From assembly GCA_026990385.1 (NCBI GenBank), contig JALXDL010000039.1, positions 4,466 to 68,465 on the forward strand: a stretch of DNA of 64,000 bases, given 5' to 3'. The notes under the pieces are model-generated. The model did not search any database. It was given only the letters and a program-made list of their open reading frames with translations, and had not been told where the DNA came from. Below are positions 76 to 5,546 of the stretch, piece by piece. The DNA is from Desulfobulbaceae bacterium. GTDB lineage: Bacteria > Desulfobacterota > Desulfobulbia > Desulfobulbales > Desulfobulbaceae. How positions within the stretch are numbered: the stretch's first letter is position 1; each line of letters opens with the position of its first letter. A program made the translations under genes and the position numbers.

Positions 76-1512
76 ATGGCAACAGAAAACAACAGCAACG
101 AAAATCAGCAGCACCCCCGGAAGGACAGGAGCGCTTGGGGGCACATCATCCGGGGGATCTGGCGTACGCCGCTGGGGGTTTTCGCCATCGTCATGACCAC
201 GGTGAGCATCACCCTGATGCTCATCGGTATGGCTGCCGAGGTTTTGGGATTCTTCAAGAATCCCTACGTGGGCATCTTTGTCTACATGATCCTGCCTGGC
301 TGCATGGTGGTCGGCCTGCTGCTCATCCCGGTGGCCGCCTACCTGCGCCGGCGTGAATGGCGCCGCACCGGCGTTCAGAAGGACCACCTGCAGCTCAACC
401 TCAGTCATCCGAAACACCGGATGTTCCTGATCGGGTTCGTTGTTCTGACGGTCATCAACATGGTTATCCTCGGCGTGGTCGGATACGAGGGCTATCACTT
501 CACGGACTCACCCTACTTCTGCGGTATGGTCTGCCACGGCGTCATGGCGCCCGAGTATACCGCCTACAAGCGTTCGCCGCACGGCAAGGTCGCCTGCGTG
601 GAGTGCCACATCGGCCCGGGCGCCGAGTGGTTCGTGCGCGCCAAGCTCTCTGGTCTGCGGCAGGTGTACGCCGTGATCACCAACAGTTATTCCCGGCCCA
701 TTCCCACGCCGGTGGAGGCGTTACGTCCTGCCCGGGATACCTGCGAGGAGTGTCACTGGCCTGAGAAGTTTTACGGCAAGAAGGTCAAGACCTTTATCCG
801 CTTCAGCAACGAGGACCAGGAGAATCCGGAGCGTACCGACATCGCGCTGCATATCGGCGGCCACAATCCGGTCACCGGCAGCTTTGAGGGTATCCACTGG
901 CACGTCAGCAAGGATGTCGAGGTCAAGTACCTGGCTGCCAATGAAAAGCGGACCAGTATCGCCCGGGTCAAGGTCAGGCGGCCCGACGGCTCTGAGGATG
1001 AATTTGTCAAGTCCGACGTGGAGGTGGAAGAGGGCTATGAGCCCAAGTGGCGGGTCATGGACTGTATCGACTGTCACAACCGGCCCACCCATATCCTGGA
1101 CATGCCCGAGGACGTGGTCGACTTCGGCCTGTTGAGCAGGAAGATGAACCCTGAGATCAAGGGGATCCGGGAAGATGGCCTCACGGTCATCACCATGGAG
1201 TACGAGTCCCAGGATGACGCCAGGAAGAAGCTGGTCAACAACCTCCTGGAGCTGCAGAAGAAGAGAGATCCGGCGCAGTTCGCCAAGTACGAGGAGGACA
1301 TCAGGAAGGCAGGCGAATACCTGCTGGACAAGTTCCTGGGCAACGTCTGGCCCCGGCAGAAGGTCCTCTGGGGCACCTACAAGGTACACCTGGGACACCA
1401 GTTCGCCGACGAGGGATATGGCTGCTGGCGTTGCCATGACGACGAACACGAGAACAGCAAGGGCGAGACCATCAGCCAGGACTGTTCCCTCTGTCATGAC
1501 GAGCCCGAGTAA
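76..1512 (+). CDS. NapC/NirT/NrfH-family membrane-anchored multiheme cytochrome c (6 heme motifs)
   Basis: Three N-terminal hydrophobic helices; FCGMVCHGVM (CX3CH followed by Met) plus CVECH, CEECH, CIDCH, CWRCH and CSLCH; purine-rich RBS upstream. Confidence 0.9.
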   Translation: MATENNSNENQQHPRKDRSAWGHIIRGIWRTPLGVFAIVMTTVSITLMLIGMAAEVLGFFKNPYVGIFVYMILPGCMVVGLLLIPVAAYLRRREWRRTGVQKDHLQLNLSHPKHRMFLIGFVVLTVINMVILGVVGYEGYHFTDSPYFCGMVCHGVMAPEYTAYKRSPHGKVACVECHIGPGAEWFVRAKLSGLRQVYAVITNSYSRPIPTPVEALRPARDTCEECHWPEKFYGKKVKTFIRFSNEDQENPERTDIALHIGGHNPVTGSFEGIHWHVSKDVEVKYLAANEKRTSIARVKVRRPDGSEDEFVKSDVEVEEGYEPKWRVMDCIDCHNRPTHILDMPEDVVDFGLLSRKMNPEIKGIREDGLTVITMEYESQDDARKKLVNNLLELQKKRDPAQFAKYEEDIRKAGEYLLDKFLGNVWPRQKVLWGTYKVHLGHQFADEGYGCWRCHDDEHENSKGETISQDCSLCHDEPE

Positions 1513-1592: not shown

Positions 1593-1629
1593 ACGGAAAA
1601 AGGCGGGGATATTCCCCGCCTTTTTCCGT
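1593..1629. terminator. Bidirectional intrinsic terminator
   Basis: Perfect 17-bp inverted repeat ACGGAAAAAGGCGGGGA-TAT-TCCCCGCCTTTTTCCGT with A5/T5 tracts, lying between convergent genes. Confidence 0.85.
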
Positions 1630-1696: not shown

Positions 1697-2518
1697 TTAT
1701 TCTTCCTCGCTCTCTTCGGCCAGGCCCCGGACGGCGATGGCGCCGGCCAGGCCGAGCAGGCCGGCTGTCTTGACTTGGCGCACGGCCGGCTGCATCATGG
1801 AGGCCAGCATCCTGCGCCGGCTGGCCGCCTCGGGCATCTCCTGCGGCGTGCTGGTTCTGGCAAGCAGCTCCAGGTCCCGGGGCTTGCCAAAGTAGTAGAC
1901 ATTGGGCCCGATCTTGACGTTGGCCGACTCCAGGCGCCTGGCGCCTTTCCTGACATAGGCCGCCACCTCGGACTTGGGATCGTCCAGGACACCGAAGATA
2001 CGGGCGTCGGTGATGCAGGTCTGCACGCAGGCGGGAGCAAGGCCCTTTTCCACCCGGGGCATGCAGAAGGTACACTTGTCGGCGATACCCTCGCCGCCGA
2101 TATCCTCGTTGGCCACCTCGGTGTTGACGTAGCGGGCACCGTAGGGACAGGCGTCCCGGCAGGCACCGCAGCCCAGGCAGCGGCTCTGGTCGATCTGCAC
2201 CGTGCCGTTGAAAGGATCCTTCCAGGTGGCGGCCACCTCCATGGTCTTGGTCTTGCCGGTTGCCGCATCCTTGAAGGTCACCTCGACCGGGTCGGCCGGA
2301 CAGACCGGCACGCAGGCCGGAGAGTCACAGTGGTTGCAGAGTCCGGGATAGAAGGTGAACGCCATCCCGTGGGAGGTGTTGGCCGGCCCCAGGCGGTGTA
2401 CCCAGTTTCGCCGGTATCCCTCCCGGGTCGGCACCTGCCACTCGGCCCGGCAGGCAACGGCGCAGGCATGACAGCCGACGCAGCGGTCAAGATTGATGAT
2501 CATGGCATATTGCTTCAT
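1697..2518 (-). CDS. PsrB/PhsB/DmsB-like 4x[4Fe-4S] electron-transfer subunit
   Basis: CVGCHACAVAC, CNHCDSPAC..C, CLGCGACRDACP and CTFC..CVQTC motifs; directly downstream of the Mo subunit. Confidence 0.92.
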   Translation of the reverse strand: MKQYAMIINLDRCVGCHACAVACRAEWQVPTREGYRRNWVHRLGPANTSHGMAFTFYPGLCNHCDSPACVPVCPADPVEVTFKDAATGKTKTMEVAATWKDPFNGTVQIDQSRCLGCGACRDACPYGARYVNTEVANEDIGGEGIADKCTFCMPRVEKGLAPACVQTCITDARIFGVLDDPKSEVAAYVRKGARRLESANVKIGPNVYYFGKPRDLELLARTSTPQEMPEAASRRRMLASMMQPAVRQVKTAGLLGLAGAIAVRGLAEESEEE

Positions 2519-2532
2519 TGTTGCTCTCCTCT

Positions 2533-4839
2533 CTATGCGCTCTTGATGGTGTAGCGGGGAATCTCATCGGGAACCGGACAGAGATCCGGCATGGCGAGCG
2601 GCTTGCCGCCGCGGATGATGCGGACAAAGTTGGTCCGTTTGCTGGTGGCGCCCATGAAAGGATCTTCCACGTTCTTCGTCATCATGAAGCCGTCGGCCGC
2701 GCCCTTGCCGTGGGCCCGGCTGAGCAGCGGCGATTTGCTGCCAAAGCCGTGCGCCATGTAGACGGTGTCGGGCCTGATTCCCGGGGTGACCAGGACCTTG
2801 ACCGGGTTAGAGCGTTTGCCGTCCTGGTTTTCCAGTACCACCTCTTCATTGTCCCTGATACCGAGCATCTTGGCCACCTTGTCGTTGAGCCAGAGCTTGT
2901 TCTCCGGGATCTCGTTGTGCAGCCAGAGATTGTTCATGGTCCGGCTGAAGGTGTGCACGGGCGAGCGGCCGTAGATGAGGCGGGTGTAGCCCTTGGGTGG
3001 CGCCGGGGTGGCCTCGTATTTCGGGATCGGGTCCAGGTCCTCGTCATCAAAGGCCTCGACCCACAGGTTGACCTTGCCGGACTCGGTGTCCAGCTTGAGC
3101 TCGCCCGGTTTGCGGTAGGGATTTGCGGGCAGGGTTATGAGCCCGCCTTCCTTGTTCAGCGTTTTGAGCGAATAGCCGACCCCTTCCAGCTCCTTTTCAA
3201 TGAAGGCCTGTTCGTTGGGGCAGGTGAAACCTGGAATGTCCAGCCGTTTGGCCAGGTTCTTGGCGATCCAGTAGGGAGACCTGGCCTCGAACAGGGGGTC
3301 CACCACCGGTTGGCGCACCGTGACATAGGGGGTCAGGCCGTCGTAGGCATAGACACCGTCGTAGCGCTCCAGGTAGACCGCGTCGGGCAGGATGATGTCG
3401 GACCAGATCGCGGTTTCGCCGGCCATGATCTCCTCGCAGAAGATGAAGTCGAGCTTCTTGAGCGCCTTCATGGTCTCGTAGGGATCGGGAATCGTCTGGA
3501 TCACGTTGACGCCGTTGATTCCCAGCAACCGGATGGGATAGGGCTTGCCGGTGATGATGGCCTTTATGATATCAGCGGTCACCGTGCCGAAGTTGCTTGA
3601 AAACGGATAGGCCGAGTCTTCCTTCAGCGAGACCTCGGGCTCGATGGGCGCCACGTGCTCGGACTTTTCCGCCACGCACTCGACGTGTCCCAGCGGGACA
3701 GGGCTGGGGAAATAGATGCCGCCCGGCACTCCCACGGCGCCGAACAGGGCGGTGAGGATGGCGTAGGACTGGTGCCGCCCCACATCACCCTTGCCGTACC
3801 AGGTGGAGTGTCGGCCCGGATGGATGTTGACCTGGGGGCTGGCCTTGGCGAGCAGCTCGATGGCCGCCTTCATGTCCTCGATCCTGAGATCGCAGATTTT
3901 TGCGGCCCATTCCATGGAATAGCCGCTGACCTCTTTCCTGAGGGCATCGAACCCCTCGCAGTGGTTGGCGACAAATTTTTTGTCATAGAGGTTGTTGCTG
4001 ATCACGTAGTTGATCCAGGCGAGCATCAGGGCCGTGTCCGTGCCCGGCCTGATGGCGAGGTGGATGTCGGCCTTGCCGGCGGCCGTGGAAAAGCGCGGAT
4101 CCACCACCACCAGCCTGGCGCCGCTCTGCAGGCCGGCGATGAACTCGCGCACGTGGGAGACGTGAACGTTTTCACCGATGTGGGACCCTACCAGCAACAT
4201 GGCCTTGGCATGGGCCATGTCGTTGTACTGGCGGGTGCCGGTGGTGATGTAGCCCACGGTTTCCAGGTAGGCCAGGGCGGCCGGACCGACGCACTGGAAA
4301 AAGGCGGGTTCACTGGTGTAGTTTTCCGTGCCCATGTTGATGAAGATCTTACGCAGGTGCTCGGCCGAGGCACCGTGATCGAAGAAGGCCAGGGCATGGG
4401 GGCCATACTCCTTCTTGACCTTGTCCATGTTGTGGGCGATCTCGTCCAGGGCCTCGTCCCAGGTGATCCTGGCCCATTTGCCTTCACCCCGGGCGCCGAC
4501 CCGTTTCATGGGATACTTGATCCGGTCCGGATCGTAGAGGAGCTGGACCCCGGAGTTGCCCCGGGCGCAGACCCGGCGGCCGTTGACCGGACTCTTGCTG
4601 TTGCCCTCGATCTTGATCAGCTTGCCGTCCCTGACCTTGCCGATGATGGGGCAGCGCCAGAAGCACATTTCGCAGACCGACGTGGTCTCGCTGGCCCCCA
4701 TGCTTCCGCTCGGAGCAATGGGCAGGGTTCCGGCCCTGGCTGCCCGGAAGAGGCCCTTTCCTCCCGGCAGACCGGCCGTGGATGCTGCCATTGCCACGGC
4801 CGTGGCTGTTGACATCTTGAGAAAATGTCGTCTGTTCAT
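2533..4839 (-). CDS. Tat-exported molybdopterin (bis-MGD) oxidoreductase, polysulfide/thiosulfate reductase (PsrA/PhsA)-like catalytic subunit
   Basis: Start at 4839 behind AGGAGG; Tat motif MNRRHFLK; [4Fe-4S] motif CEMCFWRC...CARG; Cys in the Mo-ligand region (FFQCVGP); RPGTDTAL and GRH segments; C-terminal molydop-binding domain. Substrate cannot be determined from sequence alone. Confidence 0.85.
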   Translation of the reverse strand: MNRRHFLKMSTATAVAMAASTAGLPGGKGLFRAARAGTLPIAPSGSMGASETTSVCEMCFWRCPIIGKVRDGKLIKIEGNSKSPVNGRRVCARGNSGVQLLYDPDRIKYPMKRVGARGEGKWARITWDEALDEIAHNMDKVKKEYGPHALAFFDHGASAEHLRKIFINMGTENYTSEPAFFQCVGPAALAYLETVGYITTGTRQYNDMAHAKAMLLVGSHIGENVHVSHVREFIAGLQSGARLVVVDPRFSTAAGKADIHLAIRPGTDTALMLAWINYVISNNLYDKKFVANHCEGFDALRKEVSGYSMEWAAKICDLRIEDMKAAIELLAKASPQVNIHPGRHSTWYGKGDVGRHQSYAILTALFGAVGVPGGIYFPSPVPLGHVECVAEKSEHVAPIEPEVSLKEDSAYPFSSNFGTVTADIIKAIITGKPYPIRLLGINGVNVIQTIPDPYETMKALKKLDFIFCEEIMAGETAIWSDIILPDAVYLERYDGVYAYDGLTPYVTVRQPVVDPLFEARSPYWIAKNLAKRLDIPGFTCPNEQAFIEKELEGVGYSLKTLNKEGGLITLPANPYRKPGELKLDTESGKVNLWVEAFDDEDLDPIPKYEATPAPPKGYTRLIYGRSPVHTFSRTMNNLWLHNEIPENKLWLNDKVAKMLGIRDNEEVVLENQDGKRSNPVKVLVTPGIRPDTVYMAHGFGSKSPLLSRAHGKGAADGFMMTKNVEDPFMGATSKRTNFVRIIRGGKPLAMPDLCPVPDEIPRYTIKSA

Positions 4840-5384
4840 GAAGTTACCTCCTTCTCGGTATGGTGAAGGCACAGGTGGGTGACCTGGCCAAGTAGACGGT
4901 AGAACGGACAGGGATCGGCCTCCTGCAGCCGCTGGTGGAAGAGCGGATACCAGCGCAGCAGGTGATCGGCCAGGAAACGGCCGAGCAGGGCAGGGCGCTT
5001 CTCGTCGAGCAGGATACCCACAAAGGCGAGCTCCTGGACCAGGTGATCAGCGTATTCGCTCGCGCCTGCGGGTTCGATCCCGGCCTGACGGTAGAAGGCC
5101 AGGGCCTGGTCGTGGCCCTCCTGCATGAGGACGTTGGAGCCGCCCAGGTAAACGGATGCCCAGGGCGGGGCGGGAACCCCACCGGGAGCATTGTCGAAGA
5201 GGCGGACGTATTCGGCCTCCAGGTCGGTGAGAGAGGGCGGTGCAAGGGCGGAGGCCGGCGGTGCATTCAGGTCCAGGTCCGTTGCCAGGGCGGCGAGCGC
5301 TGTCACGGCGGACAGCAGGCTGTCCCCGAACCGGGGATAGGAAAATGCAGCGGAGAGAAAGTGAAAGGGGTGGTCCTGGCTCAT
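4836..5384 (-). CDS. TorD/DmsD-family redox enzyme maturation chaperone
   Basis: EYVRLF, PPWASVY and DHLVQEL motifs; ATG at 5384 with GGAG RBS; stop overlaps the start of the Mo subunit (ATGA). Confidence 0.85.
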   Translation of the reverse strand: MSQDHPFHFLSAAFSYPRFGDSLLSAVTALAALATDLDLNAPPASALAPPSLTDLEAEYVRLFDNAPGGVPAPPWASVYLGGSNVLMQEGHDQALAFYRQAGIEPAGASEYADHLVQELAFVGILLDEKRPALLGRFLADHLLRWYPLFHQRLQEADPCPFYRLLGQVTHLCLHHTEKEVTS

Positions 5385-5546
5385 GGGAACTCCGTACTCT
5401 GCAGGGGAAACAGGGGGATAGGTTCTTCCCGGCCCATGCCGGGCCGGGAGTGTTCGGCTGCGGCAACGGCTTCCGGCCGCTGAATGGGCATTCATTTTTT
5501 TTGCAGTATCCTACAGTGCTGTTCGTTCGCTGTCAAACCGTAAGTG

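Follow-up and report, generated by a model that had tools for sequence, protein, structure and literature searches.

How does a molybdoenzyme of the periplasm that has no quinone-linked membrane subunit gain or shed its electrons? The question is raised by a three-gene operon in a 64,000-nucleotide stretch (hereafter the window) of contig JALXDL010000039.1 from Desulfobulbaceae bacterium GCA_026990385.1 (assembly of 3.75 Mb, 99.6% complete). The genes are co-directional on the minus strand and encode, in order, a TorD-like maturation chaperone (MolyC), a catalytic subunit with a signal for twin-arginine translocation (Tat; MolyA) and a four-cluster iron-sulfur (Fe-S) subunit (MolyB; Table 1). 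The ATG of molyA follows a GGAGG site and overlaps the stop codon of the chaperone gene (ATGA), and a gap of 14 nt separates the end of molyA from the start of molyB. Some 70 nt past the end of molyB there is a perfect hairpin, GGAAAAAGGCGGGG-AAU-AUCCCCGCCUUUUUCC, whose G+C stem stands between an A-run and a T-run and which also ends the convergent cytochrome gene at 76-1512. It folds at -35 kcal/mol (z = -6.4) and none of 200 shuffles was as stable; a consensus terminator scan did not pick up the hairpin at ~1595-1627. Between molyB and this terminator there is no polytopic membrane gene. A first-pass annotation of the window had described exactly this arrangement, namely a chaperone, a Tat-exported A subunit, a 4x[4Fe-4S] B subunit and a strong terminator with no membrane gene, and Pfam matches, motifs and folding all bear it out.

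By its sequence, the locus is orthologous to the MOLY cluster (molyC-molyA-molyB) of the literature. We favour, with a probability of roughly 0.6, a reading in which it acts as a periplasmic sulfur-compound reductase that has lost its membrane anchor and whose electrons travel via the c-type cytochrome network.

The MOLY cluster was found by comparing six sulfur disproportionators from vents, for which locus tags are given (Allioux et al. 2022, PMC9676032), and the genomes of Thermosulfurimonas dismutans and strain M19 are reported to carry it. The genes were subsequently named MolyA, MolyB and MolyC, with the full cluster confined to Desulfobacterota and present in 90% of elemental sulfur (S0) disproportionators; the cluster is set apart from the rest of its family by the chaperone and by the lack of the usual transmembrane anchor, DeepTMHMM predicts both MolyA and MolyB to be extracytoplasmic, and MolyA is assigned to another orthogroup than the gammaproteobacterial PhsA (Novak et al. 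2026, PMC12998232). In the window we find the same syntenic chaperone-A-B trio, a MolyA orthologue and no transmembrane anchor gene with the cluster. The close family of this MolyA spans 58-96% identity and includes proteins from strain M19 (77%), Dissulfuribacter thermophilus (67%), Dissulfurirhabdus thermomarina (65%), Thermosulfuriphilus (64%) and T. dismutans (63%). The D. thermophilus protein (P0033, 67% identical over its full length) is UniRef100_A0A1B9F4R4, which is the MolyA named in a 2026 proteome study of that organism, where it was detected under sulfite/H2 (PMC13490349). The MolyA of the window and the T. dismutans copy fall in one well-supported, starred clade of 35 rows, in which the D. 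thermophilus and strain M19 copies are found too. Because the protein belongs to an anchor-less clade that had already been described with the same gene set (PMC9676032; PMC12998232), the architecture is not new, and the novelty that the first-pass annotation had seen in it falls away. The context of sulfur reduction or disproportionation that it proposed has fared better and matches what the literature proposes for the MOLY cluster. Moreover, related Desulfobulbaceae have been described as carrying Phs/PsrAB without PsrC in a 2026 study of cable bacteria (PMC13047784), and the present genome encodes dsrAB, DsrMKJOP and YedE-type genes.

MolyA begins with MNRRHFLK, which contains the twin-arginine motif NRRHFLK, and its N-terminal cluster motif (CX2CX3CX27C) supplies the FS0 cysteines C56, C59, C63 and C91. 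The protein aligns end to end with PsrA of Thermus (2VPW_A, 529 bits), compared with just 132 bits for ArrA (6CZ7_A). The Mo-ligand Cys173 of PsrA, together with His145 and Arg332, corresponds to C183, H155 and R343 of MolyA, and these residues are invariant in 16 homologues. The best NCBIfam match is PhsA (NF012032) at 467 bits, which is under the equivalog cut-off of 694; the same model gives 471 for the T. dismutans MolyA and 466 for clade II (described below). The ArrA model (NF041714) gives 146 bits, its cut-off being 1600, and across the ArrA, TtrA, NapA, DmsA and YnfE/F models scores range from 70 to 230 bits against cut-offs of 778-1750. A sulfane-sulfur compound or thiosulfate is our best guess at the substrate, since the PsrA active site is aligned, PhsA is the top NCBIfam match and scores on the ArrA, TtrA, Nap and Dms models are far lower.

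Eighty related loci, pre-selected by two peptide patterns, were then compared, their open reading frames (ORFs) being classified by BLAST and by a hidden Markov model (HMM) built from the seven NrfD proteins of this genome. All 80 contain A, 75 have B directly after it and in 68 a chaperone gene stands ahead of A. The NrfD HMM found no NrfD gene after B in any of the 75 B-bearing loci (at least 900 bp beyond B were available in 55 loci). The same HMM detected PsrC in four control A-B-NrfD clusters of the same order, and its two hits among the related loci (L046 and L051) lie several kb off, in distinct FeS-NrfD modules. The classical A-B-NrfD clusters of the order have a short, tail-less B and an A that is 38-41% identical to the MolyA of the window and forms a separate clade.

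A different membrane gene was found in 11 loci, where a four-helix cytochrome b (PF01292) directly follows B. These loci come from WOR-3, Calditrichota, Ignavibacteriota, Acidobacteriota, Myxococcota, Nitrospirota and one genome labelled Chlamydiota. Rhodanese or YeeE/Sulf_transp genes are present in most of these loci, and some encode the cytochrome b as a fusion with the sulfur-transport domain. In architecture-labelled trees the cytochrome-b lineages branch as the basal grade within a clade that has a support of 99 in the Shimodaira-Hasegawa-like approximate likelihood ratio test (SH-aLRT), and the NrfD-linked PsrABC enzymes lie outside it. The placement of MolyA relies on these trees together with the NCBIfam and PDB scores. 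The same clade holds clade I (the window and T. dismutans) and clade II (Desulfocapsaceae, Desulfurivibrio and others), both with the chaperone-A-B arrangement, and a third group whose enzymes are followed by Rieske and cytochrome b-like genes or by no recognised partner gene. In no locus of the two Thermodesulfobacteriota clades is B followed by an NrfD or cytochrome b gene. The lost subunit was thus probably a PhsC/FdnI-type cytochrome b and not PsrC, because the deeper relatives have A-B-cytochrome b with a B that ends in a transmembrane helix and the NrfD-linked enzymes fall outside the clade. The first-pass annotation had framed the locus as missing NrfD/PsrC, which is probably off the mark for the same reason.

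Two further observations arose from this comparison. Loci L120 (4153-7609) and L125 (3661-7143), from other genomes of the order, encode Tat-signal PsrA-like subunits that are 37-41% identical to MolyA; downstream there is no four-cluster B, and in its place are a 136-aa protein with an RR-motif and a transmembrane start (possibly Rieske-like) and a membrane protein of 5-6 helices. They represent a third architecture inside the same clade as MolyA. Selenocysteine was considered for the clade-II enzymes and rejected, since the flags for one internal TGA were natural stops read through by one residue (checked on L116).

The B subunit carries a trace that can be compared with the cytochrome-b-linked relatives. 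MolyB has 16 invariant cysteines in four [4Fe-4S] cluster motifs and no signal peptide. Relative to PsrB of Thermus it contains an extra 20-residue insertion (residues 77-96), which is common to clades I and II and is not found in the cytochrome-b-linked relatives, and a C-terminal extension of ~55 residues. The helical tail within this extension (residues ~229-269) aligns with the transmembrane helix of the cytochrome-b-linked relatives. It consists of a basic amphipathic stretch, then ~13 hydrophobic Gly/Ala-rich residues and an acidic end. The hydrophobic run contains an Arg and stays under the Kyte-Doolittle threshold of 1.4, compared with 1.5-1.76 for the clearly hydrophobic helix that ends B in the cytochrome-b-linked relatives. 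In a thermophilic MOLY subclade that includes T. dismutans, B stops before the hydrophobic segment. In the AlphaFold2 model of MolyB (mean predicted local distance difference test score, pLDDT, 71.5) the insertion forms a beta-hairpin and the tail one long helix with a pLDDT of ~50. From the alignment we take the tail to be a degenerate vestige of an anchor helix; it may still make a weak contact with the membrane or with a partner.

On the reading that we favour, MolyC would hold the Tat signal of MolyA until the molybdenum/tungsten bis-pyranopterin guanine dinucleotide cofactor (Mo/W-bisPGD) and the FS0 cluster have been inserted, and MolyA would be exported jointly with the signal-less MolyB through Tat to the periplasm. 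There the enzyme would most likely reduce a sulfane-type sulfur compound (polysulfide/S0 or thiosulfate) at the PsrA-like active site, with sulfite-linked chemistry as a further possibility, and the reaction might be reversed during disproportionation. The lineage would have lost the PhsC/FdnI-type cytochrome b and kept only the degenerate remnant of the anchor helix. Since no dedicated quinol-oxidising subunit would be left, electrons would probably pass between MolyB and the general network of periplasmic and membrane c-type cytochromes. Candidate partners are the NapC/NirT-like cytochromes next to the operon, cytochrome c-FeS-NrfD modules and a pair of 7-haem cytochrome c and cytochrome b.

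Could the membrane subunit be encoded elsewhere, or the partner lie next door? By Pfam, the genome has seven NrfD genes (PF03916) and three genes that clearly match cytochrome b (PF01292), all on other contigs; a fourth PF01292 match is under the cut-off. The genome-wide search for orphan nrfD genes that the first-pass annotation had proposed yielded one stand-alone NrfD with no adjacent Fe-S gene, on contig C30. Co-occurrence of three membrane candidates (the NapC-like family, this orphan NrfD and the 7-haem/cytochrome b pair) was surveyed in 121 genomes of the order, nine of which have clade-I MOLY. We consider it unlikely that the adjacent tandem NapC/NirT-like cytochromes are a specific quinol dehydrogenase that forms one functional unit with the enzyme, as CymA does with ArrAB. 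The convergent genes share the terminator with the operon both here and in the sister genome G080, a module of FtsH, NapC-like and MerR-like genes lies 6-11 kb away in three more genera, beside clade-I and clade-II enzymes alike, and a member of the family occurs in 8/9 clade-I genomes as well as in T. dismutans and strain M19. However, the gene is present in just two of the 80 related loci (flanks up to 10 kb) and is transcribed separately from the operon; the cytochrome is far commoner than MOLY (86/121 genomes), with orthologues of 56-68% identity in many genomes without clade I, and none was found in two carriers of clade-II enzymes, genus g2 and Desulfogranum japonicum. Synteny and co-occurrence lend weak support to these cytochromes as the partner. 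Either of the two mechanisms offered by the first-pass annotation, a soluble enzyme or one wired through a multihaem cytochrome, may hold. Rather less probable is a split PhsABC, still a quinol-linked membrane complex, in which the C-terminal helix of MolyB inserts and docks on a cytochrome b encoded elsewhere, for example that of the 7-haem cytochrome c and PF01292 pair at G000:C54:143.8-145.8 kb. The homology of the MolyB tail to a genuine transmembrane helix speaks for such a complex, as do the distant likeness of the C54 cytochrome b to the PhsC-like gene of a Nitrospirota relative (25% identity, E 7e-9) and an orthologous 7-haem/cytochrome b pair (45% and 63% identity) ~5 kb upstream of chaperone-A-B in genome G083. 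It sits poorly with the short, Arg-containing hydrophobic run of the tail and its sub-threshold hydropathy, with the thermophilic subclade that has no hydrophobic segment altogether, with the published call of MolyB as extracytoplasmic (PMC12998232) and with the occurrence of the pair in only three of the nine clade-I genomes searched.

A dispersed PsrABC, in which a dedicated NrfD/PsrC binds MolyAB from another locus, seems very doubtful to us. The C30 gene, with no Fe-S subunit gene beside it, is the natural candidate, an orphan NrfD of D. thermophilus is strongly induced in the condition in which MolyA was detected (PMC13490349), and the MOLY cluster of T. dismutans has a cytochrome c-FeS-NrfD-cytochrome c module ~4 kb away. 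Yet the C30 gene has orthologues of at least 66% identity in ~46/121 genomes and in only 4/9 with clade-I MOLY, the other six NrfD genes stand beside or near Fe-S genes of their own (DsrMKJOP, TtrBCA-like and cytochrome c-FeS-NrfD clusters), and the NrfD-linked PsrA of the order forms the separate clade with the short, tail-less B. That the enzyme acts on arsenate, selenate, nitrate or an S- or N-oxide is the most improbable of these alternatives. Family sequence does not reveal the substrate and the anchor-less ArrAB is an architectural precedent, but the NCBIfam scores given above, the match to PsrA with its active-site residues kept, the rhodanese and YeeE sulfur-transport genes clustered with relatives and the distribution of MOLY, which follows the sulfur disproportionators (PMC12998232), all argue for sulfur. 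As none of the three membrane candidates behaves as a dedicated partner by co-occurrence, the survey agrees best with a shared network of cytochrome c as the route by which electrons are exchanged.

Several points weigh against a periplasmic, anchor-free sulfur reductase served by the cytochrome network. The MolyB tail might span or bind the membrane, as its hydrophobic run is marginal and the structural model is of low confidence there. In D. thermophilus the condition that revealed MolyA was sulfite/H2, and the protein was not seen during thiosulfate disproportionation (PMC13490349). The loss of cytochrome b is deduced from quick trees with SH-aLRT values as the sole support, rooted on cytoplasmic paralogues of this genome and built from pattern-pre-selected loci. 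Both the substrate and the direction of the reaction are guesses from homology. Moreover, none of the candidate electron partners is specific in its occurrence to the order's nine clade-I genomes.

Table 1. Predicted features in and around the operon, and membrane-subunit genes elsewhere in the same genome. Plain numbers are window positions; C numbers are contigs of this genome (G000).
Feature	Position	Strand	Basis or remark
Putative promoter, sigma-70-like TTGACA-17-TAGGAT	5508..5536	-	10/12 hexamer positions, consensus match alone; upstream of chaperone gene
molyC, torD-like redox-enzyme maturation chaperone, 182 aa	4836..5384	-	PF02613, E 8e-24
molyA, Tat-exported Mo/W-bisPGD catalytic subunit, PsrA/PhsA-like, 768 aa	2533..4839	-	PF04879, PF00384, PF01568
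molyB, four-[4Fe-4S] electron-transfer subunit, 273 aa	1697..2518	-	PF13247
Bidirectional intrinsic terminator hairpin	~1595..1627	both	between convergent molyB and cytochrome genes
NapC/NirT-family membrane multihaem cytochrome, 478 aa, neighbour	76..1512	+	PF03264; NrfH/TorC-like NCBIfam below cut-off
NrfD in DsrMKJOP	C99		
NrfD in TtrBCA-like cluster with two-component system	C47		A subunit 480 bits on TtrA
NrfD in three cytochrome c-FeS-NrfD modules	C42, C88, C116		no catalytic subunit
NrfD in FeS/hexahaem/NrfD cluster	C10		
NrfD without Fe-S neighbour	G000:C30:15193-16380		
Cytochrome b gene by formate dehydrogenase	C60		
Cytochrome b gene by 7-haem cytochrome c	C54		
Cytochrome b gene	C24		

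The chaperone gene matches the DmsD/TorD models of NCBIfam weakly, all under cut-off. The convergent neighbour of the operon has N-terminal transmembrane helices, five CxxCH motifs and one CxxxCH, and is the second of a tandem pair after an FtsH paralogue; the first cytochrome (34% identical to the second) and the FtsH gene lie just upstream of the window, and the three genes together span G000:C39:1108-5977 (locus L021). Immediate adjacency of the NapC-like cytochrome to the operon is seen only in this genus. The idea that it is a rule-like conserved neighbour was rejected on the count of loci given above, and the cytochrome was kept as a weak lead. Where the FtsH-cytochrome-MerR module occurs in the three other genera, a histidine kinase and a response regulator stand between it and chaperone-A-B, so that the linkage is recurrent but loose. 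In other genera this module, with its MerR/HspR-like gene, was also found near the 7-haem/cytochrome b pair and near NrfD paralogues. Next to the stand-alone NrfD gene on C30 there is a second such pairing, of an FtsH paralogue and an 8-haem cytochrome.

Other loci of the genome are related to parts of this system. A four-gene module at G000:C42:63087-67408 (L128:4088-8409) encodes a 4-haem cytochrome c, a Tat-signal Fe-S protein, NrfD and an 8-haem cytochrome c, with no catalytic subunit. Its make-up is that of TDIS_0609-0606 of T. dismutans, which there adjoins the MOLY cluster and nap genes. Locus G000:C96:34302-40838 (L022:3803-10339) encodes a cytoplasmic PhsAB-like pair without a Tat signal (A of 759 aa, 33% identical to MolyA; B of 171 aa), with nuoA, nuoB/C, nuoD and nuoH following immediately downstream in the same string of genes. 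The sister genome G080 and G094, from a second genus of the family (A 50% and B 68% identical), share the order A-B-nuoA-nuoBC-nuoD-nuoH, and the pair may feed electrons into a complex I or draw them from it. In D. thermophilus, PhsAB-like homologues of this pair showed the strongest induction under thiosulfate disproportionation (PMC13490349). A second cytoplasmic PhsAB-like pair (A of 705 aa, B of 150 aa) at G000:C65:17113-21880 (L023:2114-6881) lies downstream of a gene for a 636-aa protein with a TauE/SafE sulfite-exporter domain, and is 79-88% identical in other genera of the order.

MOLY is at present one of the two leading genomic candidates for the pathway by which S0 is disproportionated (PMC12998232). 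The electron route of an enzyme without a quinone-linked subunit is the central gap. This locus opens no new question. Taken together, the comparative results narrow the existing one, in that the lost partner was probably a cytochrome b, the tail of B would be the remnant of its anchor, and no obvious membrane candidate tracks the cluster. These three results point experiments to the periplasmic cytochrome c pool. A bolder extension, which we regard as a long shot, is that MOLY enzymes descend from a cytochrome-b-anchored, tail-anchored reductase of thiosulfate or polysulfide, of the PhsABC/FdnGHI kind, that was freed from the quinone pool in Thermodesulfobacteriota. Such uncoupling would let one periplasmic enzyme serve both branches of disproportionation via the cytochrome c pool, with the vestigial MolyB tail and the recurrent FtsH-NapC module as its hitherto unrecognised docking and electron-entry system.

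Lastly, the locus can be set beside known systems. PsrABC of Thermus thermophilus (2VPW-2VPZ) resembles it in the catalytic subunit from end to end, in the active-site residues and in the four-cluster B; it differs in that the window has a TorD-like chaperone gene, an insertion and a tail in B, and no NrfD-type PsrC. The likeness to PhsABC of the Salmonella type lies in the top NCBIfam match to PhsA and in the PF01292 cytochrome b that follows B in the deeper relatives of MolyA, whereas the match itself is under cut-off and the window contains no cytochrome b gene. In FdnGHI of E. coli, FdnH ends in a single transmembrane helix that is paired with the four-helix cytochrome b FdnI. The combination of a B helix and a four-helix cytochrome b recurs in the cytochrome-b-linked relatives of MolyA; in the window, in contrast, the cytochrome b is gone and the helix appears degenerate, and MolyA is not a formate dehydrogenase. 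ArrAB of Shewanella with CymA and the periplasmic FdhAB of Desulfovibrio with cytochrome c3 are two-subunit, Tat-exported molybdoenzymes served by a shared cytochrome c system. They have no dedicated membrane subunit either, and by analogy cytochromes may serve the enzyme of the window in a similar way; ArrAB differs in that its catalytic subunit belongs to another clade, to judge from the ArrA score of MolyA. The closest counterpart is the MOLY cluster of the thermophiles in which it was founded, with the same three genes, no anchor gene and no essential difference. The present copy comes from a Desulfobulbaceae lineage of mesophile type, and its B subunit keeps the Gly/Ala-rich hydrophobic tail that the thermophilic founders lack.

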